From the NCBI GenBank assembly GCA_051715345.1, contig JBPXJQ010000004.1, positions 89,019 through 110,668 on the forward strand: a stretch of 21,650 nucleotides of DNA, given 5' to 3'. The notes under the pieces are model-generated. The model saw only the letters and a program-made list of their open reading frames with translations. It had not been told where the DNA came from and did no database searches. This DNA is from Candidatus Blackallbacteria bacterium. Its GTDB lineage: Bacteria > Cyanobacteriota > Sericytochromatia > UBA7694. This document shows, piece by piece, positions 2,395 to 17,335 of this stretch; the stretch's first letter is position 1, and each line of letters opens with the position of its first letter. The position numbers were made by a program, and so were the translations under genes.

Positions 2395-3300
2395 GGTATC
2401 AATACCTTCAAGGGAGTTTGGCTGTTTGAAATTGGGTTGCCAGCCGGGTCAACAATATCAGCATTGGCGATGATTTCGATTTGACCCCCTGAGACAAAAG
2501 CGGGATGGGAGATTTGCGTACTCAAGACAATCGTTCTAAAACTGGCATCCCAAGCTGCATAACTGGCTTCTCCCCTCAACCTAGACCATGGCCCCTGGTA
2601 GCCAACCCGGCCATCAGGGCCTGTGACCTTGATTTGGTAATTTTCAGCAGCCTTGCTGGCAGTACAGGCTTTCGCCCCCGGAAAACCTGCCGGGGCCTGC
2701 TTGCACGAGGGCAACTCATCGGCCATTCCCCCGGCAATATTTAAACTGTAAGTTTTAAGCAACATCGGCTCGCTGTACTGGAGCAATAGTGTGGGCATTT
2801 GCCCAGAAAAACCAGCCCAAAGGGCCGCTTGCAGGCTGGGCATTTGCTGATCTGCTTTGACTTGAAACTGGTATGCGTCCTCAAAATCGCCGTCGGTCAA
2901 TTTGAAATGTTTTTCTTTGCGTTCTACGCCTGTTTTGTCGCGCAGGGTGTTTTTTTCATTTGTGAAATGTTTAAACGCCACTTGGTAATGGGGGGTAAAT
3001 TCGGGGTTTTTATCTGTGGGCAAAGACAAGCCTGGTTTGAATTGAAAGGTCACTTGGGTATCATCCGTATTCCAGGAAATGTCAAAGGCAGATGCGTCGT
3101 AAATGGGGGTACCAATCCCTGACTCTGCATTGCTGGCGATCAGACCATTGCCGTGTAATGTGTACTTAAATCCCATTTCTGAAGGGAATTTATTGATGGT
3201 GTTATCCACAGATAATTTGTGGTTTTTAAAGCTGCGCACAGTAAATGTATCTTCTACTGACTGTCGATCCATGGGTTCAGAAAATTTGAGGGAGAACAGA
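2222..3300. repeat. Direct repeat, copy A (~1.1 kb). It covers the 5' end of paralog 1, the gene junction and the 3' half of paralog 2.
   Basis: Long nucleotide stretches are nearly identical to 3735..4820. For example 2391..2470 matches 3901..3980, and 2560..2940 matches 4073..4450 at about 90% by eye. The + strand ORFs 2505..2744 and 3692..4273 translate to almost the same peptide. Similarity decays near 3300/4820. The end points are approximate. Confidence 0.7.
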
Positions 3301-3905
3301 GTATCTGGAGATACACGAAAACCATTGCGAGAGGGATAGACTTGGGTGATTTCAGGGAGATCGCTCAAACCGTTATAATCGGCTGAATAGCCGCCAATAG
3401 ATTTAGAAGAGCCAAAATCGAACCGGTAGGGTGTGGTGGGATCTTCTTTATATATACTGGTTTTGTCGGTCGTTTTACGGGGAGTATATCCTGGTTTTGT
3501 GGCGATTATTTTGACTTGAATGCCAAGTGGAACTTGGGTTATCTGGTATTTCCCATTCACAGTCTGGGTTGAGCCAAAGAAGGGAACGTCAGGATGGATA
3601 CTTTCTACAGTGATTTGAACTCCATCCAGAGGTTGGTGATTGTCATCATAAACCCAACCTTCAATAATTTCATGGTGTTCTTGTCTCACGGGTGGTCTAT
3701 CAGCCTGTAACTCAGAAGGTTTTGGGGTGGGTCGTGGCAGAACAGCAGATGGCGTGGGACTGGCTAAAATTGTTGGGGAAACAGAAGCTCGGGGAATGGG
3801 GCTGGGTTCTGGCAGAACCCCTTGAGTTGTGCAGGCACACTGGCTGCTCAATACCAATGCCAGAAAAAACCAGCCTGAGACAGCTCTGTGATTGTGGGAA
3901 CTCAT
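2391..3905 (-). CDS. Secreted multi-Ig-like surface protein, paralog 2 of 4. It is a chimera with an N-terminus like paralog 1 and a C-terminal half like paralog 3.
   Basis: This is a 504-aa ORF. The signal peptide MSSHNHRAVSGWFFLALVLSSQCACTTQG is nearly identical to that of paralog 1. Motifs present are IIATKPGYTPR, FSEPMDRQSVEDTFTVRSFKNHKLSV, HFKLTDGDFEDAYQFQVKADQQMPSL and YSEPMLLKTYSLN. The C-terminal ~330 aa are about 90% identical to paralog 3. Confidence 0.85.
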   Translation of the reverse strand: MSSHNHRAVSGWFFLALVLSSQCACTTQGVLPEPSPIPRASVSPTILASPTPSAVLPRPTPKPSELQADRPPVRQEHHEIIEGWVYDDNHQPLDGVQITVESIHPDVPFFGSTQTVNGKYQITQVPLGIQVKIIATKPGYTPRKTTDKTSIYKEDPTTPYRFDFGSSKSIGGYSADYNGLSDLPEITQVYPSRNGFRVSPDTLFSLKFSEPMDRQSVEDTFTVRSFKNHKLSVDNTINKFPSEMGFKYTLHGNGLIASNAESGIGTPIYDASAFDISWNTDDTQVTFQFKPGLSLPTDKNPEFTPHYQVAFKHFTNEKNTLRDKTGVERKEKHFKLTDGDFEDAYQFQVKADQQMPSLQAALWAGFSGQMPTLLLQYSEPMLLKTYSLNIAGGMADELPSCKQAPAGFPGAKACTASKAAENYQIKVTGPDGRVGYQGPWSRLRGEASYAAWDASFRTIVLSTQISHPAFVSGGQIEIIANADIVDPAGNPISNSQTPLKVLIP

Positions 3906-4820
3906 GGTATCAATACCTTCAAGGGAGTTTGGCTATTCGAGAGGGGGTTGCCCGCTGGGTCAACAATATCAGGATTGGCGGTGATTTCAACTTGGGCTCC
4001 TGTCACAAAAGCAGGATGAATAGATTTAGAGCTGAGCACGATGGTTCTATAACTGGCATCCCAAGACGCATAACTGGCTTCTCCCCCCAGCCTAGACCAT
4101 GGCCCCTGGTAGCCAACCCGGCCATCAGGGCCTGTGACCTTGATTTGGTAATTTTCAGCAGCCTTGATGGCGGTACAGAGCTGGGCCCCCGAAAAGCCTG
4201 CCGGAGCCTGTTTGCAAGAGGGGAGTTCATCAGCCATGCCACCGGCCAAATTCAAGCTGTAAGTTTTGAGTAACATGGGTTCGCTGTACTGGAGCAAAAG
4301 CGTGGGTGTTTGTCCCGAAAAACCAACCCAACGGGCCTCTTTTAAGCTGGGCATTTGCTGATCTGCTTTGACTTGAAACTGGTATGCGTCCTCAAAATCG
4401 CCATCGGTCAATTTGAAATGTTTTTCTTTGCGCTCGACACCTGTTTTGTCACGCAGGGTGCGGTTTTCATTTGTGAAATGTTTAAAAGCCACTTGGTAAT
4501 GGGGGGTGAATTCGGGGATTTTATCTGTGGGCAAGGACAAACCTGGTTTGAATTGAAAGATCACTTGGGTATCATCCGCATTCCAGGTGAAATTAAAGGC
4601 GGATGAATCGTAAATGGGGGTGCCGTTGCTTATTTCGTAAAAATGAGGCGATCCAAAATGGGTATTTGCATCTTTCCCGTTCAAAGTATACTTAAATCCT
4701 TGTTCAGAAGGGAATTTATTCATGGTATTATCCACAGATAATTTGTGGTTTTTAAAGCTGCGCACAGTAAATGCATCTTCTACAGACTGTCTGTCCATGG
4801 GTTCAGAAAACTGCAAGATG
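3735..4820. repeat. Direct repeat, copy B. It covers the 5' end of paralog 2, the gene junction and the 3' half of paralog 3.
   Basis: This is the partner of 2222..3300. It is offset by 1511 bp, which is exactly the length of paralog 2 including its overlaps. It contains a ~90-nt indel relative to copy A around 4610..4700. The end points are approximate. Confidence 0.7.
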
Positions 4821-5581
4821 AAATCTGTTATAGGAGACAAGCCTGTACCATTGCGGGCAGGGGTCACTAAAGTGACTTCGGGTTGGTCGCTCAGACCTTC
4901 GTAAGAAGCAGAAAAATCTTCTGTAAAGGGATTTGCATCTCTACCAAAATCATAGCGGTTATAATTGGGCTGCCCCCGGTTAGCCTTGATTATTTCTACT
5001 CTGCTGCGGGACGTATATCCTGGTTTTTGAGCGGTTAAATTCACCCTAGCACCTGCCGCAGCACAGGGAAATTGATAATAACCCCTCTGTGTTTTCTGCT
5101 CGGAGTAATAGGAAAATGAATAATTATTAAATTCTGCCGTTACCCGTACATCCTCCATCAACTGAGCATTATCATCAAAAATATAGCCTTGTAAAATATC
5201 ATTTCTTGAGACCCAATCTAGCTCGGCCTGATAGACTGCAGCACAACTTTCCGGTGTAAGACCAGTTTTGGTTGGAGAATAGACACTTGGTGTTGGCATA
5301 GGAAAGTAGGGGGGGAAGGGCTTTGATGTGGGACTTACATAGGGAGTCGCTGTTGGAACCAACGCAGGTGAGGCCGTGGCAATGGGTTGCACTGCCATTG
5401 TTGGCGAAGTCGAAGGAGTCGTTGTTTGCAACGGACTGGGACTGGCAGTGGGGCTCAAAGGAGTTGAATTGCAGGCGCTGATTCCCCCCAGCCCCAAAAG
5501 CAAAATACCCCCAAGCGACAGAGCTGAGCGCTGTCTGTGAAAATGGCTGTAAAGGATGTCTTTCAATGCACGATCAGCCAT
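3902..5581 (-). CDS. Secreted or lipoprotein multi-Ig-like surface protein, paralog 3 of 4.
   Basis: This is a 559-aa ORF. The N-terminus contains LSLGGILLLGLGGISAC, a lipobox-like ISAC, followed by a long S/T/P linker. Motifs present are LTAQKPGYTSRSRVEI, QFSEPMDRQSVEDAFTVRSFKNHKLSV and HFKLTDGDFEDAYQFQVKADQQMPSL. The C-terminus VDPAGNPLSNSQTPLKVLIP is nearly identical to that of paralog 2. The stop overlaps paralog 2's start by 4 bp. Confidence 0.85.
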   Translation of the reverse strand: MADRALKDILYSHFHRQRSALSLGGILLLGLGGISACNSTPLSPTASPSPLQTTTPSTSPTMAVQPIATASPALVPTATPYVSPTSKPFPPYFPMPTPSVYSPTKTGLTPESCAAVYQAELDWVSRNDILQGYIFDDNAQLMEDVRVTAEFNNYSFSYYSEQKTQRGYYQFPCAAAGARVNLTAQKPGYTSRSRVEIIKANRGQPNYNRYDFGRDANPFTEDFSASYEGLSDQPEVTLVTPARNGTGLSPITDFILQFSEPMDRQSVEDAFTVRSFKNHKLSVDNTMNKFPSEQGFKYTLNGKDANTHFGSPHFYEISNGTPIYDSSAFNFTWNADDTQVIFQFKPGLSLPTDKIPEFTPHYQVAFKHFTNENRTLRDKTGVERKEKHFKLTDGDFEDAYQFQVKADQQMPSLKEARWVGFSGQTPTLLLQYSEPMLLKTYSLNLAGGMADELPSCKQAPAGFSGAQLCTAIKAAENYQIKVTGPDGRVGYQGPWSRLGGEASYASWDASYRTIVLSSKSIHPAFVTGAQVEITANPDIVDPAGNPLSNSQTPLKVLIP

Positions 5582-7526
5582 TTAAGGTCAGGCTCACGTT
5601 GTTACGGGCGCTATCCACAGTATTGCCTGCGGGGTCCATCACATCTGCTTCAACCCGAAAGGTGAGACGCTCTCCAATTTCAAACAAGCTCGGAATTACC
5701 CCTTCGCTCAATGTTTGACCGCTGCTTAAAAGCTGAGCCAAACGGGTTTGAACGTCGGGATCTGTTGCTGCTCCGGCAAAGGCGGGCAAAGTCAGCCTGA
5801 CACTTTTGCGGCTGGCATCGCGGCTGAGATACTCCACCCGCCCACCGAGTTGGGCCCAACTGCCTTCGAATCGGGTTTGCCCCAGCGCGTCTTTGACCAG
5901 CAAAAGGTAGTTTTCAGCCGCTTTGGCAGATGTGCAATTGATGGCCCCTGGATATCCAGCGGGGGCCTGACGAAAGGCAGTAAGGCTATCACTCATGCCG
6001 CCCGCAATGTTCACGCCCAGGGTTTCGAGTAACATGGGCTCGCTGTAGTGCAGAATAAACCCGGCCCCGCGTGGCGACTGGGGATCGGGAGTGATATGGG
6101 TCAGCGTGGGTTTGACTTCGTCGATTTTGATAGAGAATTTGTAAGACTCTTCAAAATCGCCATCGGTCAGTTTAAAGTGTCTGTCACTCCGTGAAATACC
6201 GCTCTTGTCTGTCAACACGCGGTCTCCACCTGAGAATGCACGGAAAGCAACATTGTAATTGGGAACCAGGTTGCTGTCTTTGTCGGTCGGCAGCTGTTTT
6301 CCTTCTTTAAAGGAAAAAGTGGCTTCAGAGTCATCGCTGTTCCAGCTGATATTAAAGGCCGCTTTGCCCCAAATTGGGGTGCTATTGCCGGGCAAGAAAT
6401 TAGTGGCAACGAGATCTTTGCCAATCACCGTATTGGCCCCTCCTGCCACACGCAGATTGTCTGCATCCACCGTCAGTTTTCGATTGTTAAAAGCGAAGAT
6501 CATGAAATTGTTTTCAACTGTCTGTTTATCCATGGGCTCAGAGAATTTCAGCACGAAGCTGGTGTTGAACGCTACACCGGAGCCATTGCGGGCCGGAGTG
6601 ACCATCACCACTTCGGGTTTGTCGCTCAGTGCGTTGTATGCGGCAGAGAAGGTCGCTGCGCCTCCATCGGTACCGAAATCAAATCGATTTCCCTCAATGC
6701 CTTGCGGACGAGATTTGACAACTTCCACTCGACGTCGTTCTGAATAGCCTGGCTTTGAGGCCTTTATAGTCAGTGATATTGAACTTGGCACATTTTTGAA
6801 AGCATATTGGCCATAAACATCACCCTCTGTTTTATCATAATAATTAAAGGTCTGAGAATTTGAATAGACCTCCACCGTAACGCCTGAAAGGGGTGAAAAG
6901 CTGTCATCATAAATCTTGCCATAAAACGAATTCAATTCAAGATCTTCACAATTACACCTTCGGAATGGGGTTGGAGTAGGATCCGGTTGTCGTGGGGTAC
7001 GTTTGGGGGTTGGGCTCACTGAATTTATCGTATTTCGAAAGGGTTCAACTGAAGCAAGAGGGCTGGGTATAGGGTAAGGGATAGGACTGGGTATAGGGTA
7101 AGGTGTAGGGCTGGGAAGGCGGGCCTGGAGCTCAAATCTGAGTTCTCCCACAGCAGTCACCTGACCTCTGGCGTTGATACTTTCCAATTTAAGGGTGTGG
7201 CTGCCCAGGGCATAGCCGGTTAAATCCAATATCTCGCGCGGCAAGACCAAATTGTCTTTGTAAAGCTTGCCATCGAGCCAGAGGCGGTAGCTATAGGCCT
7301 CGGGTTGGGTATTCCAGCGCAGCTCATAAAAGGCGGAGGCAATGGGTTCCAGGCTGAGATTGAGGCGTGCATGCGGCAAGGAAGCCCTTGAATCAGGTGT
7401 GGGAGTCGGCGACGAGGGGGAGGGGAGAGAGAGCGGGGATTGAGAGCGGGGTTCACAGCCCCAAAGCCCCAAAACCAGACAGCAGCAAAAGATTTGAGTG
7501 GATAACCCCTGTGATCTGACCATCAA
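5574..7526 (-). CDS. Secreted or lipoprotein multi-Ig-like surface protein, paralog 4 of 4 and the most divergent. It has a YPIPSP repeat linker.
   Basis: This is a 650-aa ORF. The N-terminus MMVRSQGLSTQIFCCCLVLGLWGCEP is a signal with a lipobox-like LWGC. The Pro-rich repeat PSPTPYPIPSPIPYPIPSP is present. Motifs present are IKASKPGYSERRRVEV, KFSEPMDKQTVENNF, HFKLTDGDFEESYKF and HYSEPMLLETLGVNIAGGMSD. The C-terminus carries MDPAGN. The gene overlaps paralog 3's start by 8 bp. Confidence 0.85.
   Translation of the reverse strand: MMVRSQGLSTQIFCCCLVLGLWGCEPRSQSPLSLPSPSSPTPTPDSRASLPHARLNLSLEPIASAFYELRWNTQPEAYSYRLWLDGKLYKDNLVLPREILDLTGYALGSHTLKLESINARGQVTAVGELRFELQARLPSPTPYPIPSPIPYPIPSPLASVEPFRNTINSVSPTPKRTPRQPDPTPTPFRRCNCEDLELNSFYGKIYDDSFSPLSGVTVEVYSNSQTFNYYDKTEGDVYGQYAFKNVPSSISLTIKASKPGYSERRRVEVVKSRPQGIEGNRFDFGTDGGAATFSAAYNALSDKPEVVMVTPARNGSGVAFNTSFVLKFSEPMDKQTVENNFMIFAFNNRKLTVDADNLRVAGGANTVIGKDLVATNFLPGNSTPIWGKAAFNISWNSDDSEATFSFKEGKQLPTDKDSNLVPNYNVAFRAFSGGDRVLTDKSGISRSDRHFKLTDGDFEESYKFSIKIDEVKPTLTHITPDPQSPRGAGFILHYSEPMLLETLGVNIAGGMSDSLTAFRQAPAGYPGAINCTSAKAAENYLLLVKDALGQTRFEGSWAQLGGRVEYLSRDASRKSVRLTLPAFAGAATDPDVQTRLAQLLSSGQTLSEGVIPSLFEIGERLTFRVEADVMDPAGNTVDSARNNVSLTLNG
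7060..7115. repeat. Short tandem DNA repeat with a ~24-nt unit in about 2.3 copies. It encodes the YPIPSPIPYPIPSP linker of paralog 4.
   Basis: The sequence reads ctgggtatagggtaagggataggactgggtatagggtaaggtgtagggctggg, which is directly visible as an imperfect tandem duplication. Confidence 0.6.
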
Positions 7527-7656
7527 AAATCCCCCTCAAAAGCAGCGATTTTTCTCAAGACGCTGTTTCGAAGGGGGATGTTCCCATTTGGGCAAAAAAC
7601 CTGCGAAGGCCCCGCTTTTTCAGAGAATTCAGCCAGGTTTGCCGCTGTAAGCAGGC

Positions 7657-8877
7657 TTACGCGCCTTCAACCACCTGCGCGATTTGGATCAAACGGTTTT
7701 CACTAAAGTCTTTGACGGCGCTGTAGAAGGTGTGGCTGTCCACGGGCACCCGGCGGCGCACATCACCGAGAGTCTGGCCGGTGGTCAGGCCCCAGAAACA
7801 GGCTTCGGCATGGGGGTCGATATTCTCGGGGGGGGCCTCGGCCAATTTAATCACCACCGAATCATCGGGGAACATCTCCAACATGACTTTGGTTTCGTCG
7901 CTGCGGCGCATGCCTTCGATAATCAAATGCATGACGGAGACCTGAATGGTGCGACCGGGGGGCTCTTCGTTTTCGTTAAACGAAAAGGTGCCATCGGTCC
8001 AGCCCATCATCTCATAAGCGGCCATGGGGCCGGTTAAAAAGGGCGGGGAGCCAGAGGTTTCGGCATAATGCACTTCGCCCCGCTGCAGGTAAATTTTGCC
8101 CGATTGGGGTTTGCTGTTGATCGTGACCGAACCCGTTTTGGCATCGTTGCCGAGCATTTGCAGAATATTGGGCGGAATGATCACCGAGAGGCTGCCGCGC
8201 ACAGCCCCTGTGTCGTCTTCTTCCATTAGGGTTTTCATTTCGCGGACCTCGGCCTCGGATTGTTCGAGCTTGCCGAGAATCATATTCAGTCGGGTATTGT
8301 CTTCTTTGAGCTTGTCGAGGGTTTGTTGCAGCAAGGTATAGAGCTGAGAGTTCTCAATTGCGATCGCAGCAATATTGGCCAAAGACGAAAAGAGAATCAG
8401 GTCGGTTTCGTCGAAGGTGCCTTCGATTTTATTGAGCACCTGCAAAATACCAATCACCTGATCGCCCGAACGCGACAAGGGCACACAGATAATGGAACGG
8501 GTTTGGAACTTGCTCTCTTCGTCCACGCCTTTGTAAAAGCGCTCGTCTTTGGTCACGTCGGGCACAATCAGAGGCCTGCCTGTTTCGGCGACATGGCCTG
8601 CAATCCCTGTGCCCACTGGAATGCGCATGCTCTCAACCACTTTGCCCGCTTCGCCCTGGGCAAAGTGAAAAACCAGCTCTTGGGTGCTTTTATCCAAAAG
8701 TGCCAGCGAAGAAGCTTCGGCATTCATCACGATTTTGGCCACGTCAATAATGGTACGCAGCAAGACATCCAACTCCATTGAGGAGTTAATGCTGTTGTTG
8801 ATTTCCAATAATACCTGAAAGCGTTCGACGAATTTCAGGGCTTCTTCGTGGTTCAGATTCTCGATATCTATATCCAT
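7657..8877 (-). CDS. Protein with a GAF domain, a coiled-coil and a DUF4388 domain. It is a putative sensor or regulator.
   Basis: This is a 406-aa ORF. The N-terminal ~180 aa have a GAF-like pattern (LLRTIIDVAKIVMNAEASSLALLD...GIAGHVAETGRPLIVPDV...SIICVPL...GILQVLNK). A coiled-coil segment follows (LQQTLDKLKEDNTRLNMILGKLEQSEAEVREMK). Then comes a DUF4388-like block (GSLSVIIPPNILQMLGNDAKTGSVTINS...GKIYLQRGEVHYAE...GTFSF). The RBS GAGGT lies 6 nt upstream of the ATG. Confidence 0.7.
   Translation of the reverse strand: MDIDIENLNHEEALKFVERFQVLLEINNSINSSMELDVLLRTIIDVAKIVMNAEASSLALLDKSTQELVFHFAQGEAGKVVESMRIPVGTGIAGHVAETGRPLIVPDVTKDERFYKGVDEESKFQTRSIICVPLSRSGDQVIGILQVLNKIEGTFDETDLILFSSLANIAAIAIENSQLYTLLQQTLDKLKEDNTRLNMILGKLEQSEAEVREMKTLMEEDDTGAVRGSLSVIIPPNILQMLGNDAKTGSVTINSKPQSGKIYLQRGEVHYAETSGSPPFLTGPMAAYEMMGWTDGTFSFNENEEPPGRTIQVSVMHLIIEGMRRSDETKVMLEMFPDDSVVIKLAEAPPENIDPHAEACFWGLTTGQTLGDVRRRVPVDSHTFYSAVKDFSENRLIQIAQVVEGA
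7838..7845. repeat. G8/C8 homopolymer tract inside the GAF-DUF4388 CDS.
   Basis: The sequence ctcgggggggggcctc contains 8 consecutive G. On the coding strand it reads GCC CCC CCC GAG, encoding APPE. This is the longest homopolymer I noticed in the window. Confidence 0.5.
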
Positions 8878-8934
8878 GCACTACCTCAACACTTAGCTTT
8901 CAGCGAATCGTAAAGATATTATTACACATTCCGC

Positions 8935-10590
8935 TTAACCGGGAAACAGCCGAACAATATTGCTCTGGGCTCGCACTTCGAGTTCTTCGGGCTTTTCTGC
9001 GCTTTTGTCGCCCACGGCTTTGTAAAAGTCGGTATTGTAGGGGCGGGTGCGAATCACCACCGGCATGGGCACAGCATAACCCAAGATCAGCGCCTGTTGT
9101 TTGGGATCGAGCTGCGAGAGCACCGTGCGCAAACTCTGGCTGCCACTCACGCCCGTAAAAACCGCGTCAATGTCTTTGTCGTCGTTGAGCAGGGCCGTGA
9201 TGCGTGTGCCGACCTGGCTGAGAATTTCGCTGTCGATGCTCGACGGGCGCTGATCGACAATCAGCAGGGTGACTGAATATTTGCGCATCTCACGGGCGAT
9301 GGTGCCAAAGATCGTCTGACGGGCAATCGCCGGAGCCAAAAATTTATGCGCCTCTTCGATCGTGATCACCAATTGGCGGGGTTTGACGTTGTTGAGCGGG
9401 TCGGCGTTGTAGATGTCGGATTTATCGACATAGCTCTGGTGAATCCGGCGGGTGATGATATTGGTGGCCAGCATATAACTGAGCAGGCTGTTGTGGCCGC
9501 CAAATTCGAGCACCACGTGTTTGCCGCTTTCGAGGTATTTCAGAATCATCTGAATCGCGTCGCCACTGCCCTCATCTTTGATATAACTCAGGTTCGTGAC
9601 CTTGATCAATTTGCGCTGCAGGGCCTTGAGCGCACCGCTGTGGCCCTTGGCACTGGCGACAAAGTCGTCGATCTCGTTGGCCGACATCTGCAAAAATTGC
9701 TTGAGCCAATTGCGGCCCAGGGCCTCTTCGAGAATCATCGCCGACTCAATGCTGGCCTCGGAGAGATTGAGTTCCTGTTTGATCAGGGCCAGGTCTTCGA
9801 TCTGGATCTGGCGCAGAGGAATGCTGAGTTCTTGGGCATCTTTGATTCCGCGCTGGCGCGAGGACTTGAGATCGAGGGTAAAAACCACCACATCGCGGCC
9901 AAAGAGCTGTTTAAGGCCTTTGACCACTTTTTCGCCTTTGTTTTCACTCAGGGCCTGCCAGCCATATTCGTTGTGCATGTCAAAGATCAAATTGACAGCC
10001 ACCTGCTTTTTGATAATCCCTGAAAGCACGAGCCGGGTTAAAAAAGACTTGCCTGTGCCGGATTTGCCAAAAATCGCGTTACTGCGTTCGACCAACCGGT
10101 CGAGATCGAGACAGAGCGGCACGTCCATATCCAGGGGCATGCCAATAAAAAAACGGGCCTTGTGTGGATCGTCTTCTTGGCCAAAAACGGTGGCAAAATC
10201 TTGCTCTGAAGCGACCTTCACGGGGGCAAAATGGGAGGGAATGGTTTTGACTGGGCGCAATTCCTCTTCGGGGTCGGCGTCAGCACTGAGGGCATTTTTT
10301 TCGAGCATCAACATCGGCTGGAGCGAAACCGTGCCCAAGGTGCCTGTGCCCTGCAAAATCTGAGCCAAAAAATCGCCCTGAGCTGGCGGGTTGAGCAAAA
10401 TCTGGGGATTGGAGGTGGTCAGAGCGACATCGGTGATCAGGCAGAAAAAGCGCTTGAGCTGGCCTTCGACCACCACAAATTGCCCCACGCGAATGTCTTC
10501 CACGTTCTGATCAGCTGCCAGCCGCATTTTTAAGCCACCCGAAAGTGAACCTTCAATAATGGTGCCCAAAACAGGGGAGGGATGAGGCAA
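8935..10590 (-). CDS. HerA-like ATPase of the DUF87 / FtsK-HerA P-loop superfamily, with an N-terminal HAS-barrel.
   Basis: This is a 551-aa ORF. The N-terminal beta-rich segment MPHPSPVLGTIIEGSLSGGLKMRLAADQN...VGQFVVVEGQLKRFFCLITDV resembles the HerA HAS-barrel. The Walker A motif is FGKSGTGKSFLTRLV. A later hydrophobic strand ending in acidic residues, VVLEFGGHN or LLIVDQRPS, is a Walker-B candidate. The C-terminus LILGYAVPMPVVIRTRP is typical of HerA/DUF87 ends. Confidence 0.7.
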   Translation of the reverse strand: MPHPSPVLGTIIEGSLSGGLKMRLAADQNVEDIRVGQFVVVEGQLKRFFCLITDVALTTSNPQILLNPPAQGDFLAQILQGTGTLGTVSLQPMLMLEKNALSADADPEEELRPVKTIPSHFAPVKVASEQDFATVFGQEDDPHKARFFIGMPLDMDVPLCLDLDRLVERSNAIFGKSGTGKSFLTRLVLSGIIKKQVAVNLIFDMHNEYGWQALSENKGEKVVKGLKQLFGRDVVVFTLDLKSSRQRGIKDAQELSIPLRQIQIEDLALIKQELNLSEASIESAMILEEALGRNWLKQFLQMSANEIDDFVASAKGHSGALKALQRKLIKVTNLSYIKDEGSGDAIQMILKYLESGKHVVLEFGGHNSLLSYMLATNIITRRIHQSYVDKSDIYNADPLNNVKPRQLVITIEEAHKFLAPAIARQTIFGTIAREMRKYSVTLLIVDQRPSSIDSEILSQVGTRITALLNDDKDIDAVFTGVSGSQSLRTVLSQLDPKQQALILGYAVPMPVVIRTRPYNTDFYKAVGDKSAEKPEELEVRAQSNIVRLFPG

Positions 10591-10627: not shown

Positions 10628-10653
10628 AAATACAGATGTATACATCTATATTT
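10628..10653. promoter_or_regulatory. Near-perfect 26-bp palindrome with a perfect 14-bp core AGATGTATACATCT at 10634..10647. It is a candidate operator in the promoter region of the HerA-like gene.
   Basis: AAATACAGATGTATACATCTATATTT has a reverse complement that differs at only 2 symmetric positions. It lies in the 105-bp intergenic gap between the DHOD-like stop at 10696 and the HerA-like start at 10590, about 40-60 nt upstream of that ATG on the minus strand. The context is AT-rich. Confidence 0.5.
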
Positions 10654-10695: not shown

Positions 10696-11709
10696 CTAGA
10701 GTGTCAGAGATGAATGCCCCGTATAACCCCCCTGCAACATTTTGACATATTGCACCCGTTCAAAAGCAGAGGGGTCGGGGCAGTACATTTGGCTGACACT
10801 GCCCTGCAATTGGCGAATAGAATCATATTCATGTTCTTCCAGCCAATGGATCAGCTCCAATTCCAGTGTGCGCACATAGCCAATACCCCGGCGCAGCAAA
10901 ACCGAGGCCATTTGGGTAATTTTGGCGCCCGCCATCAGCAATTTGAGCACGTCTTTGGCCTGATGCACCCCTGTGCTGGCAGCCAGATCGGCTTCTATCC
11001 GGCCAAAGAGCAATCCGATCCAGGTCAGAGGCAGGCGCAATTCCTGGGGCGAACTCAAGAGCAAATGGGGCTCGACCTCCAAGGTCTCGATATTGATGTC
11101 TGGCTGGTAAAAGCGATTAAACAGCACCAAGCCATCGGCACCCAGCGCCGAAAGCTGGTGGGCAAAATGACCAAAATTGGTAAAAAACGGGCTCAGTTTT
11201 ACGGCCACAGGAATCGTGATACTGCATTTGATCTCATGCACAATGTCGAGATAGTTTTGCTCGATCACCGCTGCTGAGAGCATGGGATCGGTTGGGATTT
11301 GATAAAGATTGAGTTCAAGCGCATTGGCCCCAGCCGCTTCCAGCTCTTTGGCATAGCGAATCCAGCCCCCCCGACTGTAGCCATTGAGACTGGCAATAAT
11401 CGGGATTTTGAGGGATTGCCGGGCAGCGGCAATATGTTCGAGATAGCGTTCGGGGCCCACGTGAAAATGGGGCGAACCCGGAAAAAAACTCTGGGCTTCG
11501 GCAAAGCTATCGCTGGCAAAGCTGTGGTAATGCTCCAATTCATCGTGGCTTTGCACCAATTGTTCTTCAAACAGGGAGTGCATGACCACAGCTGAAATAC
11601 CCGCTTCTTCCAAGGCGCGGATATTGTCGAGGTTTTCGGAAAGGGGAGAGGCAGAGGCCACCAAAGGTGTGCGCAATTCCATGCCCAGATAATGGGTAGA
11701 CAGATCCAT
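10696..11709 (-). CDS. Dihydroorotate dehydrogenase-like TIM-barrel flavoprotein, the DHOD-family partner commonly found next to PFOR.
   Basis: This is a 337-aa ORF. MDLSTHYLGMELRTPLVASASPLSENLDNIRALEEAGISAVVMHSLFEEQ matches the N-terminal signature of DHOD-like proteins found downstream of por/nifJ. The ATG is 2 nt after the nifJ TAA (TAAaaATG). A GGAGA RBS sits inside the nifJ 3' end. Confidence 0.8.
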   Translation of the reverse strand: MDLSTHYLGMELRTPLVASASPLSENLDNIRALEEAGISAVVMHSLFEEQLVQSHDELEHYHSFASDSFAEAQSFFPGSPHFHVGPERYLEHIAAARQSLKIPIIASLNGYSRGGWIRYAKELEAAGANALELNLYQIPTDPMLSAAVIEQNYLDIVHEIKCSITIPVAVKLSPFFTNFGHFAHQLSALGADGLVLFNRFYQPDINIETLEVEPHLLLSSPQELRLPLTWIGLLFGRIEADLAASTGVHQAKDVLKLLMAGAKITQMASVLLRRGIGYVRTLELELIHWLEEHEYDSIRQLQGSVSQMYCPDPSAFERVQYVKMLQGGYTGHSSLTL

Positions 11710-11711
11710 TT

Positions 11712-14700
11712 TTAATTTTCTCCTTGGTTCGGGGTCGTTTCAGCCATCTGCTGGTAGAGTTTCCAGCGGGAATGAATTTCTTGTTGGGCCTGTTCCAACA
11801 AGAGTTGGGCCTGTTGGGGCCGTGTGCTGCCCAGCAAACGGAAGCGATTTTGCCGGTCGTAGTAATTTTTGAGCGGCATTTTCGGACCTTTGCTGTCGAG
11901 TTGCAAGGGTGATTCCCCTTTTTCGGTGCGCGCAGGGTGATAGCGATAAAGTGGCCAGGCCCCGCTGTCTACCGCTGCTTTGTGTTCTTGCATGCCCGTA
12001 TTCATGGGAATGCCGTGGGCGATACAGTGGCTGTAGGCAATAATAATCGAAGGGCCAGGCCAGGCTTCGGCCTCCAAGAAGGCCCGCAGGGTCTGCTCAT
12101 CTTTGGCACCCATGGCCACTTTCGCCACATAGACATGGCCATAAGTCATGGCCATCATGCCCAGGTCTTTTTTGCCCAGGGGTTTGCCCCCGGTGGCAAA
12201 TTTGGCCACGGCCCCTTTGGGCGTCGATTTGGACATCTGCCCGCCGGTATTGGAATAGACTTCGGTATCGAGTACCAAAATATTCACATTGGCCCCACTG
12301 GCCAGCACATGATCGAGACCCCCAAAGCCTATGTCATAGGCCCAACCATCACCGCCAACCATCCACAGGCTCTTGCGCACCAAGGCATCAGCCAATTCCA
12401 TCAATTGTTGAACCTGTTGCGCTTGGGATGGTTCAAGGCCTTGAGACAGTTCAGCCAGTGCAGTTTTGAGTACATTGACCCTTTCGCGTTGGGCATAAAT
12501 TTCGGACTCCTCACTTTGGTCGGCCCCAATCAGGGCCTGCACCAGATTCCAGTCCAAGGCCGGCTCTAATTTGAGCAATAATTCCAGCGCCATTTCCTGT
12601 TGTTTGTCCAGGGCCAAACGCAGCCCCAGTCCAAATTCGGCATTGTCTTCAAAGAGTGAATTGGACCAAGCCGGTCCCCGACCTTCGCTGTTTTGGCTCC
12701 AGGGGGTGGTGGGCAAATTGCCACCATAAATTGAGGAACAGCCCGTGGCATTGGCCACCAGCAGCCGGTCACCAAAGAGTTGGCTGAGCAATTTGAGATA
12801 AGGCGTTTCGCCGCAGCCAGCACAGGCGCCCGAAAATTCAAACAGCGGCAACATGACTTGTTGCTGGCGCACGGAGGTCTGTTTGATCATGCTGCGCTTG
12901 AGTTCTGGCAATTTCAGGAAATAATCCCAATTTTCGACCTCGACGGCCTTGTGAGCGGGTTGGGGAGACATATTGATGGCTTTGAGCCGGGCCTCGGATT
13001 TGTTGCGGGCAGGGCAGACGTCGACGCAGATGCCACAACCGGTACAGTCTTCGGGGGCGACCTGAAGGGTATAATTGAGGCCGTCCCAACTGCGCTCGCT
13101 GGCAGAGACCGAGCGAAACCCAGCTGGGGCCGTGTTTAACAAAGCGGGTTCGTAAACCTTGGCGCGGATCGCGGCGTGGGGGCAGACCAGGGCACATTTG
13201 TTGCACTGAATGCAGACAGCCGGATCCCAGATCGGGATTTCGGCTGCCAGATTGCGTTTTTCCCATTGTGAGGTGGCCGTGGGATAGGTTCCATCGACAG
13301 GCAGGGCACTGACAGGCAAGAGATCACCTCTGCCAGCCAACATCGCACCCAACACGTTTTGAACAAATGCGGGGGCATTTGTCGGGACAGAGAGATGACG
13401 TTCACGGGTGCTGTTGCAGGTTTCTGGCAGGGGAATCTGATAGAGATGGGACAGGGTCTGATCGACGGCCTCCAGATTGCGTTGGATTACCGCTTCGCCT
13501 TTGGCGGCATACGATTTGCGAATGGCTCCCCGGATCGCATCGAGGGCCTGTTCGCGGGGTAAAACTTCTGAAATGGCAAAGAAACAGGTTTGCATGATCG
13601 TATTGATGCGGCCACGCATGCCACTCATATTGGCCACCCGTCCGGCATCGATCACATAGAAGTGGGCTTTTTGTTCAATTAAACGGGCCTGAACGGGGTG
13701 AGGGAGCTGGTCCCAGACGGTCTCTTTGTCCAAAGGACTGTTGAGCAGAAAAACGCCCCCCGGCAACAGGGCATCAAGCAAATCTGGCCGCTCCAAAAAC
13801 ATCGGCTGGTGACAGGCAATAAAATGGGCCTGCTGAATCAAATAAGGGGCTTCAAAACGCTCAGGGCCAAAACGCAGATGCGAAATGGTAATGGCCCCAG
13901 CTTTTTTGGAATCGTAGACAAAATAGCCTTGGGCGTGTTGCGCGGTTTCTTCGCCAATGATCTTGATCGTGTTTTTATTGGCGCCGACGGTACCATCAGA
14001 GCCCAGACCATAGAAGATGCCACAATTGGCCGCCTCCGGCTCATGAAAAAGCAGGGGATCATAAGCCAAATGGGTAAAGCTGACATCGTCTTCGATCCCA
14101 ATTGTAAAGCCGTGTTTGAGTTGAGCACTGTTTAAATGGGCAAAGATGCCTTCGGCCATCGCCGGGGTAAACTCTTTTGAGGAAAGGCCAAAACGCCCGC
14201 CAATGATTTTGGGAAATTCTGCCAAATCGCCCAGCATATGGGCCTGTTGCAGCGCAGCGACAACATCAAGAAAGAGAGGCTCCCCCCCACTGCCGGGTTC
14301 CTTGCAACGATCCAGCACAGCCACCCGTTTGACACTGTTAGGCAGGGCCGAGACAAAAGCCGAAGCTCCAAACGGCCGATAGAGTCGGACCTTGAGCACC
14401 CCCACTTTTTCGCCACGTGCATTGCATTGCTGAACGGCCCGAAGAACCGTTTCGGCCCCTGAACCCATCACCACAATCACCCTTTCGGCTTCTGGATGGC
14501 CCTGGTATTCGTAGAGCTTGTACTGACGTCCAGTCAAGCTGGCAAATTGGTCCATCTGGGCCTGCAAAAGGGTGGGCAGGGCGGCATAAAAGGGATTTAC
14601 GGTTTCGCGCGACTGAAAGTAGACATCGGGATTTTGGGCTGTGCCCCGAATAAACGGGTGTTCAGGGGAGAGGGCCCGCTTGCGATGCGCTTGAATCCAA

Positions 14701-15299
14701 AGGGGATCGATCAGGGTTTTTAAGACCGTGTCACTCAAGACCTGAATTTTGCTGATTTCATGTGACGTGCGAAAGCCATCAAAGAAGTGGATAAAGGGGA
14801 TTCGACTCTGCAAACTGGCTGCCTGGGACAAGAGCGCAAAGTCGTGGGCCTCTTGGACACTGTTTGAGGCCAACAGGGCGCAACCTGTACCACGGCAAGC
14901 CATCACATCGCTGTGATCACCAAAGATCGAGAGGCCCTGGGCGGCCAAGGCACGCGAAGCCACGTGCAGAACCAGTGGCGTCAATTCTCCCGCTATTTTG
15001 TATAAATTGGGAATCATCAGCAAGAGGCCTTGGGAAGCCGTAAAACTGGTGGCCAGGGTGCCGCCTTGCAGAGCACCATGTAAAGCTCCCGCTGCGCCGC
15101 CTTCGCTTTGCATTTCAACCAGACGGGGCACGGTGCCCCAAAGATTGGGCCGGGCGGCGGAAGCCCAGCTGTCTGACCATTCACCCATGGAAGAAGAGGG
15201 GGTGATTGGATAAAGGGCAATAACTTCATTCAGCCGATAGGCAATATCTGCAACGGCTTCATTGCCGTCCATGGTTTGGGCTATTTCTGCGTGCTGCAT
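11712..15299 (-). CDS. nifJ: Pyruvate:ferredoxin (flavodoxin) oxidoreductase, the single-polypeptide NifJ/Por type.
   Basis: This is a 1195-aa ORF. The N-terminus MQHAEIAQTMDGNEAVADIAYRLNEVIALYPITPSSSMGEW is canonical for PFOR. Two 4Fe-4S ferredoxin motifs are present (CIQCNKCALVCPHAA and CTGCGICVDVCPA). The TPP-binding motif GGDGWAYDIGFGGLDHV is present. The RBS GGAGA lies 5 nt upstream of the ATG. Confidence 0.95.
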   Translation of the reverse strand: MQHAEIAQTMDGNEAVADIAYRLNEVIALYPITPSSSMGEWSDSWASAARPNLWGTVPRLVEMQSEGGAAGALHGALQGGTLATSFTASQGLLLMIPNLYKIAGELTPLVLHVASRALAAQGLSIFGDHSDVMACRGTGCALLASNSVQEAHDFALLSQAASLQSRIPFIHFFDGFRTSHEISKIQVLSDTVLKTLIDPLWIQAHRKRALSPEHPFIRGTAQNPDVYFQSRETVNPFYAALPTLLQAQMDQFASLTGRQYKLYEYQGHPEAERVIVVMGSGAETVLRAVQQCNARGEKVGVLKVRLYRPFGASAFVSALPNSVKRVAVLDRCKEPGSGGEPLFLDVVAALQQAHMLGDLAEFPKIIGGRFGLSSKEFTPAMAEGIFAHLNSAQLKHGFTIGIEDDVSFTHLAYDPLLFHEPEAANCGIFYGLGSDGTVGANKNTIKIIGEETAQHAQGYFVYDSKKAGAITISHLRFGPERFEAPYLIQQAHFIACHQPMFLERPDLLDALLPGGVFLLNSPLDKETVWDQLPHPVQARLIEQKAHFYVIDAGRVANMSGMRGRINTIMQTCFFAISEVLPREQALDAIRGAIRKSYAAKGEAVIQRNLEAVDQTLSHLYQIPLPETCNSTRERHLSVPTNAPAFVQNVLGAMLAGRGDLLPVSALPVDGTYPTATSQWEKRNLAAEIPIWDPAVCIQCNKCALVCPHAAIRAKVYEPALLNTAPAGFRSVSASERSWDGLNYTLQVAPEDCTGCGICVDVCPARNKSEARLKAINMSPQPAHKAVEVENWDYFLKLPELKRSMIKQTSVRQQQVMLPLFEFSGACAGCGETPYLKLLSQLFGDRLLVANATGCSSIYGGNLPTTPWSQNSEGRGPAWSNSLFEDNAEFGLGLRLALDKQQEMALELLLKLEPALDWNLVQALIGADQSEESEIYAQRERVNVLKTALAELSQGLEPSQAQQVQQLMELADALVRKSLWMVGGDGWAYDIGFGGLDHVLASGANVNILVLDTEVYSNTGGQMSKSTPKGAVAKFATGGKPLGKKDLGMMAMTYGHVYVAKVAMGAKDEQTLRAFLEAEAWPGPSIIIAYSHCIAHGIPMNTGMQEHKAAVDSGAWPLYRYHPARTEKGESPLQLDSKGPKMPLKNYYDRQNRFRLLGSTRPQQAQLLLEQAQQEIHSRWKLYQQMAETTPNQGEN

Positions 15300-15452: not shown

Positions 15453-17051
15453 TTAATCATCGCCAAAAAGAGAAGTGATACCACCCTGGTCTGAGCCTCC
15501 ACCCAGATTCAGACTGATTTCTTGTTCGCCAAAGAGCGAGGTCAGACCTGAGGCTGGTGCGGCATCTGGGGGGGCTGCTGCGGTCTTGATCGGCAAAAAG
15601 CGCGCAGCTTGAATCATCAGCTTGTGGGGCATAATGTCTGAGAGCGTGTCTTTGGGTGGATCAAATGAGGGATCTTCGAAAAAATCGCCATTTTCAATTG
15701 CCACTATTTTGTAAAAAGCCTCTTGGCCTTCCAGATCTTTGTAGATGGCGTGCACAAAACGTCCACGGTCGATATAGACCTTGGCATCGATATTCGTGGC
15801 CAAATCGCGGATGTGCAGCTTTTTGCGATCCAGGGCCGAGAGATTGAGTTGAATAAAGTCAAAAACCCCAATTTGACTGAGAAAGCCCTTAAATCCTGTT
15901 TGGCCAATTTCGGCCAACAATTGTTTGAGCTTGCGCAGGTCGATCGGCTTGGCCAGCAAACGGGCGTGACCCAGCTTTTCGATTTCTTCCAATTCTTCTT
16001 CGCTGGCGTTGACAATCGCCACCACCGGGGATTGGGGGTAGTGTTTCTGCAACCAACGCAAAAAGCTGTGCTGACTCAGGGTGTCTGTAATGACCAGATC
16101 AATTGGATCGCCATCGATGGCCATCATGGCCTCTTGGGGGGTTTTGAGCGAAATACAGTTAAAGCCCTCGGCAAAAAGCGCGCGCTGAATGATCATGCGG
16201 CTCATGGGGTCGGTATCCACCAGCAGGATATTTCTCAAGACGGTACTCTCTTGGGCGGTCGCAAAGGGGTCCAGCGGCCCCACGCTTTCATCCATAAACT
16301 GAGCGGCGTTCATCGAGAGACTGTCAAAGGGCAATTGAATTGTGATTTGGGCGGGCTCGGTCCAGTTTTTCTCCTGAAAAGCCCCATTTTTAAATTGCAC
16401 AATATGGTTGAAGGCCTCTATCCCCTCCGCTTTTTGGTAGCGTTCCAAGGTTTTGGGGTGGGTTTCGTAGAGTTCTGCGTGGATGATTTCTCCGCTGCGC
16501 AGATAGAGAATGCCCTCTTGCCGGGTCAATTTATCGCTAAACGAGACCAGGCACTGGGGTTTATTCATCCGCATCACCTGCAGCAAATCGAGCAAATTCA
16601 TGCGCTGAACTTGCCCTTCTAGCCCCTGCAATTGTTGGTCTAAAAGGCCCAAGAGTCGCAATCCGGGAACCGGTTTGGGAACAAACCCCAAAACGGATTT
16701 GTGCTGGCGCAGCTCATCGACCTGATCCGAAAAATCTTCGTCGGGAGAGCCAATCAAAATCACTTTGCGCTTGGGATAATTTTCGCAAACCCAAAAAGCG
16801 AGTTCTTCACCCTCATCATCAGGCATGTCCAAGCAGGAGATCACAAAATCGAAGGGGCGATTTTTAAAGCGCTGGGTGGCTTGATACAGTTCCTGTTCAA
16901 TGGACAATTCCCACTCAGAAGCGGGCAGTATGTGTAAAAGATGTTTGTGGTGGGAATTGTCGTTGTCAAAAATCAAAATCCGCTTAGCTTTGGCCGACAT
17001 GGGAAAAACTCTCTTCAATAGGTCTCTACATTTTTCAACAGTGTTTAACAT
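15453..17051 (-). CDS. Response-regulator-like protein with the tandem architecture REC-DUF4388-REC-DUF4388 and a C-terminal TSLFG-repeat tail.
   Basis: This is a 532-aa ORF. REC-like block 1 reads KRILIFDNDNS...FVISCLDMPDDEG...KVILIGS. DUF4388 block 1 reads RMNLLDLLQVMRMNKPQCLVSFSD...GILYLRSGEIIHAEL...GIEAFNHIVQFKNGAFQE. REC block 2 reads NILLVDTDPMSRMIIQRALFAEGFNCISLKTPQEAMMAI...IDLVITDT...LLAKPIDLRKL. DUF4388 block 2 reads GFKGFLSQIGVFDFIQLNLSALDRKKLHI...KVYIDRGRFVHAIY...GQEAFYKIVAIENGDFFE. The C-terminus reads GLTSLFGEQEISLNLGGGSDQGGITSLFGDD. An alternative start is Met18 (ATG at 17000). Confidence 0.75.
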   Translation of the reverse strand: MLNTVEKCRDLLKRVFPMSAKAKRILIFDNDNSHHKHLLHILPASEWELSIEQELYQATQRFKNRPFDFVISCLDMPDDEGEELAFWVCENYPKRKVILIGSPDEDFSDQVDELRQHKSVLGFVPKPVPGLRLLGLLDQQLQGLEGQVQRMNLLDLLQVMRMNKPQCLVSFSDKLTRQEGILYLRSGEIIHAELYETHPKTLERYQKAEGIEAFNHIVQFKNGAFQEKNWTEPAQITIQLPFDSLSMNAAQFMDESVGPLDPFATAQESTVLRNILLVDTDPMSRMIIQRALFAEGFNCISLKTPQEAMMAIDGDPIDLVITDTLSQHSFLRWLQKHYPQSPVVAIVNASEEELEEIEKLGHARLLAKPIDLRKLKQLLAEIGQTGFKGFLSQIGVFDFIQLNLSALDRKKLHIRDLATNIDAKVYIDRGRFVHAIYKDLEGQEAFYKIVAIENGDFFEDPSFDPPKDTLSDIMPHKLMIQAARFLPIKTAAAPPDAAPASGLTSLFGEQEISLNLGGGSDQGGITSLFGDD

Positions 17052-17335
17052 AATTTTAACAGATGCTGTCTTTCTTTGCTGGTTTTTGCCAAATGTTCCC
17101 CGTCTCGGCAGGCTCTGTTTTTTGTTGATTAAAATACGATTAAATATCCCTGCTAATCAGCAGAAAAAAAACAACTTCAGGGTATACACTGAGACAAGGT
17201 GGATTGTGACCAAACCAACATTGTTTTCACAAAAATAATGTGAATATTTAAAGGCCAGCTCAGTTATGATTCTCTCAGCAGCTTTACCCATTGCCGACCT
17301 GCTATTGCCCGCCTCAAGCAAGAGGAGACAATCGT
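17052..17335. promoter_or_regulatory. A 284-bp AT-rich divergent intergenic region. It presumably holds the promoters of the REC-DUF4388 gene (leftward) and the IPT/TIG-NHL lipoprotein gene (rightward).
   Basis: This is the longest non-coding stretch in the window. It contains a direct repeat TTTAACA(N11)TTTAACA near 17043..17071, a CTGCTaatcAGCAG inverted repeat followed by A8 (~17150..17172), and an AGGAGA RBS at 17323..17328 that is 7 nt before the TTG at 17336. Confidence 0.4.

Follow-up and report, generated by a model that had tools for sequence, protein, structure and literature searches.

An orphan HerA-clade ATPase beside a GAF-PATAN protein in Sericytochromatia: probably a lineage-restricted adjacency and not a dedicated two-gene system

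In regard to the closest described systems, HerA-type ATPases are known from the HerA-NurA end-resection complex (Sulfolobus 4D2I, Thermococcus 9X1L/M, Deinococcus 7WRW) and from the anti-phage HerA systems (Sir2-HerA/Nezha, DUF4297-HerA, TdpAB). In cyanobacteria, Synechocystis Sll0284, a protein of 579 amino acids (aa) with a DUF87 domain and an N-terminal HAS-barrel, is essentially undescribed (PMC8136920), and a review table puts Sll0284, Synpcc7942_0981 and Alr3799 in its 'FtsK/SpoIIIE' row, as HerA-clade relatives of FtsK (PMC7766704). The Anabaena 'FtsK' of two-hybrid assays is All7666, a gene distinct from Alr3799 (PMC9426583). Among PATAN (DUF4388) proteins, that of PixE is by itself sufficient for output and for binding to the hexameric pilus ATPase PilB1, and PatA-type regulators also bind PilC (10.1101/2021.06.11.447907), while Anabaena PatA localises to midcell and binds the divisome proteins ZipN and SepF (PMC12288457). 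Here we analyse 21,650 nucleotides of Candidatus Blackallbacteria bacterium (contig JBPXJQ010000004.1, positions 89,019 to 110,668; this whole stretch is referred to as the window), in which a HerA-like ATPase gene is followed, 57 bp downstream on the same strand, by a gene for a GAF-PATAN protein. The tight linkage reported by the initial annotation was confirmed in its coordinates.

In our preferred reading, to which we attach a probability of about 0.6, these are two independent modules which are neighbours in one lineage only, a conserved orphan HerA-clade translocase and a GAF-PATAN adaptor of the cyclic-nucleotide-binding (cNMP) type. The pairing is probably a lineage-restricted adjacency, and not an obligate module or a dedicated two-gene system, because neither the ATPase nor the GAF-PATAN protein needs the other. 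The two genes are:

8935-10590, minus strand: HerA-clade ATPase, 551 aa, TTG start, with a HAS-barrel and a DUF87 P-loop core (Pfam, PDB, Foldseek)
7657-8877, minus strand: GAF / long helix / PATAN (DUF4388) / C-terminal helical unit protein, 406 aa, ATG start (Pfam, AlphaFold2 (AF2) model)

The distribution of the adjacency was counted in the 89 ATPase loci whose downstream sequence extends for at least 1.3 kb. A GAF-PATAN gene was found directly downstream in all nine loci whose ATPase is at least 74% identical to that of the window (WIN, the window itself, with L008, L009, L005, L006/L007/L088, L172 and L173), in none of the five Sericytochromatia-like loci at 64-70% (L001, L010, L011, L012, L175) and in none of the 75 loci below 64%. 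The initial annotation had conceded that the neighbourhood would be a matter of chance if homologues of the ATPase never stood next to GAF or DUF4388 genes; such a neighbour is indeed missing from 80 of the 89 loci, but it recurs in 9/9 of the close relatives. A 401-aa gene 3′ of the ATPase in L175, considered as a diverged GAF-PATAN paralogue, proved unrelated (BLASTP E 4.9, no Pfam match). Apart from REC-PATAN genes in the window group and in L001, no other PATAN open reading frames (ORFs) were detected within ~8 kb in the ATPase loci by a PATAN hidden Markov model (HMM) built from 24 orthologues.

The GAF-PATAN gene likewise occurs on its own. Its orthologues keep the same architecture at 37-93% identity (24-member alignment), and all those with a source name belong to Sericytochromatia or another non-photosynthetic cyanobacterial group; in a metagenome scan with the GAF-PATAN alignment, 4 of the 80 loci held full-length orthologues, the remainder being GAF-only proteins caught by GAF patterns. 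In L168 and L169/L170, at 58-59% identity, the gene adjoins RR-HisKA and PAS-HisKA genes and no ATPase, and in L171, L089 and L091, at 43-46%, an ATPase is not nearby, the L171 copy (43%) adjoining Clp_N, FliO and flagellin genes. L171 and L175 share one contig of 5.18 Mb, on which the GAF-PATAN and ATPase genes are ~690 kb apart. With adjacency in 9 of the 89 ATPase loci, and with GAF-PATAN genes lacking the ATPase in L168, L169, L171, L089 and L091, a conserved two-gene system was not recovered in this sample. What remains of the system suggested by the initial annotation is that the pairing is not a one-off, since the flanks differ among the paired loci; the notion of a unit is weakened by both genes occurring apart.

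In a neighbour-joining (NJ) tree computed from the GAF-PATAN proteins, every member of clade A (the window group, L005 and L006) is adjacent, its sister clade B is mixed (L172 and L173 adjacent, L168 and L169 non-adjacent), and the outgroups are non-adjacent. The simplest history would be that adjacency was gained once, in the common ancestor of these two sister Sericytochromatia clades, and lost once, in one sub-branch, and it is provisional because the tree is small, midpoint-rooted and unbootstrapped. Within the two clades, the junction upstream of the ATPase changed at least twice (DHOD, a 202-aa protein, a thiamine pyrophosphate (TPP) enzyme), the one between ATPase and GAF-PATAN at least once, and the one downstream of GAF-PATAN at least three times. 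The junction of the pair is only modestly more stable than its flanks. Histidine-kinase genes accompany GAF-PATAN in clade B no less constantly than the ATPase does.

The GAF-PATAN genes of the 58-60% clade (L168 9212-14555, L169 3929-7952, L172 15070-19434, L173 5684-6829) are consistently located near an RR-HisKA hybrid kinase and a large PAS-HisKA kinase, with AAA_5 and Big_6-like (~980 aa) proteins encoded there as well; this set of neighbours is more constant than the ATPase.

As for the first of the two modules, the ATPase is a true HerA-clade protein, and not VirB4 or FtsK. Its diagnostic segments are:

10360-10566, minus strand: HAS-barrel segment, ATPase residues 9-77 (Pfam PF09378; all-beta at residues 7-57 of the AF2 model)
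10045-10071, minus strand: Walker A, F174-GKSGTGKS, ATPase residues 174-182, invariant in orthologue alignments A2 and A4
9346-9372, minus strand: Walker B region LVITIEEAH, ATPase residues 407-415, with E412, E413, A414 and H415 invariant

Pfam matches the DUF87 'Helicase HerA central domain' at residues 148-383 (3.6e-32; PF01935, 112.7 bits against a cutoff of 23.2) and the HAS-barrel at residues 9-77 (3.7e-07; PF09378, 30.6 bits against 25.2). Across 17-25 orthologues there is little or no variation in Walker A (F174-GKSGTGKS-F183), in EEAH (412-415, Walker B-like), in DQRPS (446-450) or in the GYAVPMPV of the C-terminus. Sequence matches in the PDB are HerA proteins only, and the Foldseek top 50 in the PDB is HerA throughout, beginning with Sulfolobus HerA 4d2i (4e-18) and taking in HerA-NurA, Sir2-HerA, DUF4297-HerA, TdpAB and Deinococcus HerA, at an identity to the solved proteins of just 14-18%. 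The AF2 model, with a mean predicted local distance difference test (pLDDT) score of 68 and residues 458-532 below 50, served for fold-level assignment only. The protein thus carries what defines the HerA clade, a HAS-barrel and then a DUF87-type P-loop core with invariant Walker A, Walker B and arginine-finger motifs, and the hallmarks named in the initial annotation (551 aa, HAS-barrel, Walker A, GYAVPMPV end) were borne out by Pfam and by the alignments.

The assignment to VirB4/TraC conjugation ATPases, which the initial annotation had named as fatal to its identification, can be ruled out: the sole NCBIfam match, to VirB4_plasma, reaches 22 bits against a cutoff of 590 in the Walker A region, the Foldseek top 50 are all HerA, and no type IV secretion genes were found among the window ORFs scanned with Pfam. 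FtsK/SpoIIIE was ruled out as well, with no Pfam FtsK_SpoIIIE match (the nearest is T7SS EccCb, 14 bits) and with an N-terminus that contradicts it, being a HAS-barrel and not a membrane segment. No curated HerA equivalog threshold is reached either (~80 bits against NCBIfam cutoffs of 800-970), and the protein therefore falls into a subfamily of its own.

Judged by its relatives, the 551-aa protein is the orthologue in Sericytochromatia of an old family, which is strongly conserved and lacks functional characterisation. Relatives were found in at least 585 genome stretches of species-representative genomes, with orthologue identities of 53-98%, and in an exhaustive search E falls below 1e-30 for 244 clusters (50% identity). 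Read from the best 80 of the at least 585 relatives, identity is 65-98% in Sericytochromatia, 56-63% in Melainabacteria/Obscuribacterales, 53-62% in many Cyanophyceae (e.g., Microcoleus, Anabaena, Arthrospira, Synechococcus), 53-56% in Chloroflexales and Herpetosiphonaceae, and 54% in Tectimicrobiota/Entotheonella. The nearest relative locus is L008 (JADMKE010000003), from a Candidatus Sericytochromatia metagenome-assembled genome (MAG), with identical gene order and an ATPase at 98% identity. The conservation of the ATPase looks more like that of a housekeeping gene than that of a defence gene, because identity stays at 53-69% across classes and phyla.

The family is apparently the Sll0284 / Synpcc7942_0981 / Alr3799 group, as suggested by length, architecture and cyanobacterial orthologues. 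The proteins have in common a HAS-barrel and DUF87, a size of ~550-580 aa and the lack of a conserved nuclease neighbour, and both are functionally uncharacterised (PMC8136920, PMC7766704); identity to the retrieved cyanobacterial orthologues (Anabaena, Microcoleus, Arthrospira, Synechococcus) is 53-58%. No functional characterisation of Sll0284, Alr3799 or Synpcc7942_0981 was found in the literature searched. The locus described here differs from the cyanobacterial orphan HerA group by the GAF-PATAN gene 3′ of the ATPase in its Sericytochromatia clade, while the Oscillatoriales have other neighbours (pentapeptide-repeat protein, RibBA, sigma factor) and the Melainabacteria two small unknown proteins.

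Such lineage-specific neighbours were the only ones found when three genes on each side of the ATPase were clustered in 86 loci, and there is no universal partner among them; in this survey, too, the Oscillatoriales neighbours are the pentapeptide-repeat protein, RibBA and the sigma factor. In the Melainabacteria loci L002-L004, L012-L022 and L057, conserved unknown genes flank the ATPase orthologue, an upstream one of 85-123 aa, which stops 4 bp before the ATPase start in L002-L004, and one for a hydrophobic protein of ~190-270 aa 3′ of the ATPase. A BFN-domain bifunctional nuclease is also encoded there on the opposite strand, two or three genes upstream of the ATPase. Neither the two Melainabacteria proteins (85-123 aa and ~190-270 aa) nor the 202-aa protein of L005/L006 could be retained as a shared partner, as none of them has a Pfam match or recurs across lineages. 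Metallophos genes by the ATPase in L001 and L175 were likewise discarded as Mre11-like partners, as their position and strand differ between the loci and the L001 gene has a lipoprotein-type signal sequence.

Where the family does have an operonic nuclease partner, it is NurA, whereas in Cyanobacteriota the gene is an orphan. In Tectimicrobiota L078, L080 and L084 (~6190-9620), NurA (Pfam 1.2e-36) is followed by a 191-aa HAS-barrel-like protein and then by the ATPase orthologue (54% identity), and the same NurA / small protein / HerA order is present in L176 (4057-7611), an unrelated metagenome contig with a HerA homologue 46% identical to ours. NurA has 391-401 aa in these operons, and the middle protein ~191-198 aa with a weak N-terminal HAS-barrel match (E 0.0012); this small middle gene is absent from the classical HerA-NurA pair. 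Among the ATPase loci, an HMM of the ~195-aa partner matches only in L078, L080, L084 and L176. In the window itself, no NurA was detected by the NurA HMM (E up to 1) or by tblastn (E up to 0.01), in agreement with the initial annotation, which had pointed to the lack of a NurA-type nuclease, and Pfam revealed no nuclease domain in eleven window ORFs (all ten of at least 300 aa, and 21087-21407). With the same HMM and with tblastn, NurA was not found within 8-10 kb in ~85 other ATPase loci, every Cyanobacteriota locus included. The top 120 matches of a NurA homologue search were all Tectimicrobiota-like and have no bearing on NurA in Sericytochromatia or cyanobacteria.

Compared with the HerA-NurA complex, the window ATPase thus shares the HAS-barrel and the RecA-like core fold, and relatives at 46-54% identity sit in NurA-containing operons; it differs in that no NurA is found in the window or near any Cyanobacteriota orthologue, and the bacterial operons of its relatives differ by the additional ~195-aa HAS-barrel-like gene. 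It is possible, though doubtful, that the ATPase still runs classical HerA-NurA end resection, with NurA (and the ~195-aa partner) encoded elsewhere and GAF-PATAN irrelevant, an explanation that overlaps with the preferred one. The operons with orthologues at 54% and 46% identity and the presence of HerA-NurA complexes among the closest solved structures are in line with it, while the absence of NurA within 8-10 kb of the ~85 other loci, including all those of Cyanobacteriota, speaks against it.

The solved anti-phage HerA proteins are also among the structural neighbours of the ATPase, and PADLOC HerA models match it, at best with 1.8e-31 and over a part of the protein only. Accordingly, the pair could be viewed as an anti-phage HerA-plus-effector module similar to Sir2-HerA or DUF4297-HerA, with GAF-PATAN as sensor or effector. 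The ATPase has the HerA fold in common with such systems, and their profiles match it partially, in the C-terminal half of its core, while no Sir2, DUF4297 or nuclease effector is present near the ATPase. Furthermore, the GAF-PATAN protein is matched by neither PADLOC nor PHROG and lacks a catalytic effector domain, the ATPase reaches 81.2 bits with NCBIfam HerA_antiphage (cutoff 800) and 63.1 with HerA_antiphage_2 (cutoff 850), and the neighbours in the window are metabolic genes (PFOR, DHOD-like) and surface proteins. Unlike in defence islands, the family is broadly distributed at 53-69% identity, synteny is stable within each lineage and mobile-element genes are absent nearby. Defence is very unlikely because effector or partner matches are lacking, scores stay far below the cutoffs and conservation resembles that of a housekeeping gene. 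The defence-type module considered in the initial annotation was therefore abandoned, PADLOC run on the locus having no model for the partner and the anti-phage HerA cutoffs being missed.

The second module, the GAF-PATAN protein, is built of the following parts:

8350-8778, minus strand: GAF domain of the cyclic-nucleotide-binding type, residues 34-176
8212-8349, minus strand: helical linker, residues 177-222, running on from the last GAF helix (AF2 helix 157-220)
7891-8199, minus strand: PATAN / DUF4388 domain, residues 227-329 (PF14332 5.4e-21; AF2 pLDDT ~90)
7660-7872, minus strand: C-terminal unit of three helices and a strand, residues 336-406 (confident in AF2, no Pfam match)

Pfam GAF, GAF_2 and GAF_3 match at residues 34-176 (5e-21) and PATAN at residues 227-329 (PF14332, 75.3 bits against a cutoff of 25), and in the AF2 model (mean pLDDT 82.5) the two domains are joined by one continuous helix of 64 residues (157-220). 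The composition of GAF, coiled-coil and DUF4388 given earlier is compatible with these domains and with this helix. In the C-terminal unit, D380 is nearly invariant in the 24-member alignment (A1). No Response_reg match, and hence no CheY-like receiver, was found in the protein with Pfam.

The GAF domain is best matched by PDE2A GAF-B (7e-29, 40% identity), followed by the GAF domains of Anabaena CyaB2, PDE5, PDE10 and Lcd1-cAMP, and is closely similar in sequence and fold to the cNMP-binding GAF domains. The blocks IAGHVA, FY(K/R)GVD, F(Q/R)TR and NK...F are common to both, and the first three presumably carry most of the cGMP contacts in PDE2A. GAF domains similar to the cNMP type bind other ligands too. 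Despite the shared blocks, the protein differs from PDE2A (GAF-B), PDE5 (GAF-A) and CyaB2 in that its output is a PATAN domain and not a phosphodiesterase or cyclase, and its ligand is only predicted. With the PatA-type regulators (PixE, PixG, PilG, PatA) it shares PATAN/DUF4388, the output domain in those proteins, yet the input is an N-terminal cNMP-type GAF with a long helix in place of a C-terminal CheY receiver, and the domain order is reversed. GAF / helix / PATAN represents a modest new domain combination, of which no description was found in the literature searched.

By analogy, GAF-PATAN is most likely a ligand-controlled and probably dimeric adaptor, whose PATAN end would dock on a different protein or machine. 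That target could be the HerA-like hexamer encoded next door, or equally a motility or signalling complex, because the other contexts of GAF-PATAN are kinases and flagellar genes.

The DNA around the two genes holds several candidate signals:

8878-8934, minus strand: spacer of 57 bp, in which a GAGG ribosome-binding site precedes the GAF-PATAN ATG
8918-8932, minus strand: GGAATGTGTAATAAT, extended -10-like box (TGn + AATAAT) right after the ATPase stop, the best-conserved spacer block
7593-7615, minus strand: terminator-like hairpin GCGGGGCCTTCGC followed by a T-run, 42 nt past the GAF-PATAN stop
10634-10647, minus strand: perfect 14-bp palindrome AGATGTATACATCT after a TAAAAT box, ~45-55 nt upstream of the ATPase start

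The best-conserved spacer block, GGAATnTGnnATAAT, is found in WIN, L008, L009, L005 and L006 (clade A), and its extended -10-like box may be a separate promoter for the GAF-PATAN gene. The window spacer is free of terminator-like hairpins, and the one at 7593-7615 is weak evidence, the number of terminator-like sites in the scanned region being not above the shuffled expectation. The palindrome AGATGTATACATCT occurs in a single copy in the window; it is extended to a perfect 24-bp palindrome, AATACAGATGTATACATCTGTATT, in L009 and has one mismatch in L008, and may be a candidate operator overlapping the ATPase promoter. Co-expression of the two genes is possible in this lineage.

These signals, together with the distribution described above, bear on the explanation in which the genes form a regulatory pair. 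A GAF-PATAN dimer would then bind the HerA-like hexamer via PATAN and switch its ATPase activity, DNA loading or location by cyclic nucleotide. Several observations are in its favour: all nine loci at 74% identity or more keep the same strand and order and a spacer of 57-165 bp, while the upstream flanks (DHOD/PFOR, 202-aa protein, TPP enzyme) and the downstream ones (Big_5 proteins, 130-aa ORF, 627-aa protein, RR-HisKA) differ; a terminator-like site is absent between the genes and present after the GAF-PATAN gene; the GAF domain is of the cNMP type; PatA is found at midcell and binds divisome proteins (PMC12288457); and the Sll0284/Alr3799 family is listed as a cyanobacterial FtsK-like protein (PMC7766704). 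On the other hand, the ATPase family is without a PATAN neighbour in 80 of the 89 loci, GAF-PATAN is without an adjoining ATPase in L168, L169, L171, L089 and L091, and one genome has both genes ~690 kb apart. Histidine-kinase genes accompany GAF-PATAN more constantly in clade B, and the conserved promoter-like box suggests separate transcription. The proximity of the two genes on one strand is in itself uninformative, because the whole series from PFOR to GAF-PATAN is tightly spaced, with gaps between PFOR, the DHOD-like gene, the ATPase and GAF-PATAN of 2, 105 and 57 bp. Taken together, we regard such a pair as unlikely.

A narrower and still less probable scenario, drawn by analogy, is that a cyclic-nucleotide-sensing GAF-PATAN adaptor was recruited in one Sericytochromatia lineage to control the orphan HerA ATPase, with PATAN docking on it as on PilB1. 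If true, such a recruitment would extend the PATAN-ATPase regulatory principle beyond pili, and would provide the first functional handle on a conserved, unstudied DNA pump that is sometimes listed as the missing FtsK of cyanobacteria.

Several points weigh against two independent modules. The order, strand and 57-165 bp spacer of the pair are kept through at least four genomic contexts, and this constancy, along with the lack of an intergenic hairpin, has the look of a selected operon. Since PATAN is known to bind the hexameric ATPase PilB1, a link to a HerA hexamer is mechanistically plausible (10.1101/2021.06.11.447907). The Sericytochromatia sample is small and mostly made of MAG fragments, which makes the count of independent retentions uncertain, the absence of NurA covers the window and ~10 kb on each side of the ATPase genes, and the equation with Sll0284 draws on matching length, domain architecture and cyanobacterial orthologues.

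The preferred reading takes the ATPase as a catalytically intact HerA-clade hexamer, which by homology to solved HerA would act as an ATP-driven translocase of double-stranded DNA. Its job would most likely be DNA-end processing or chromosome handling, with a nuclease encoded elsewhere or absent in this lineage; the end-processing role is inferred from NurA and the ~195-aa HAS-barrel-like protein as conserved operon partners. In the GAF-PATAN protein, the cyclic-nucleotide-type GAF would sense a small ligand and the signal would travel along the helix to PATAN, which could serve as the protein-binding end, as described in the literature for other proteins, the cyanobacterial PatA-type regulators.

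In regard to the rest of the window, the minus-strand series comprises REC-PATAN-REC-PATAN, PFOR, the DHOD-like gene, the ATPase, GAF-PATAN and four surface proteins. The REC-PATAN-REC-PATAN protein (15453-17051, minus strand, 532 aa) has two receiver and two DUF4388 matches in Pfam, and a homologue with 28% identity is located in L001, ~5 kb from the ATPase; this may be a coincidence if the genome is rich in PATAN, or residual synteny. PFOR (11712-15299, minus strand, 1195 aa) is followed 2 nt on by the DHOD-family protein (10696-11709, minus strand, 337 aa, DHO_dh 6.5e-09), and this arrangement, which has the look of a coupled pair, is kept in L008, L009 and L066. Downstream, four tandem paralogues (517-7526, minus strand; 625, 504, 559 and 650 aa), several of which overlap by 4-8 nt, have signal- or lipoprotein-like N-termini, Pro/Ser/Thr-rich linkers and CarboxypepD_reg and Big_5 domains, and paralogues of these surface proteins are also found 3′ of the pair in L005, L008 and L009. 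Divergently from the REC-PATAN gene, 17291-20998 (plus strand) encodes a secreted protein of 1235 aa with at least four IPT/TIG domains and an NHL-repeat beta-propeller. No Rfam or tRNA match was found in the window.

As a proposed new system the pairing carries little weight, given the narrow clade and the fact that both genes work apart elsewhere. More is to be gained from the unstudied Sll0284-type HerA family, together with the relict NurA / small-protein / HerA operon. The survival of NurA and the ~195-aa partner in a few lineages points to a DNA-end-processing ancestry for the protein that reviews treat as a cyanobacterial stand-in for FtsK. Furthermore, if PATAN is a general output for docking on ATPases or other machinery, this lineage would supply a natural candidate pair.

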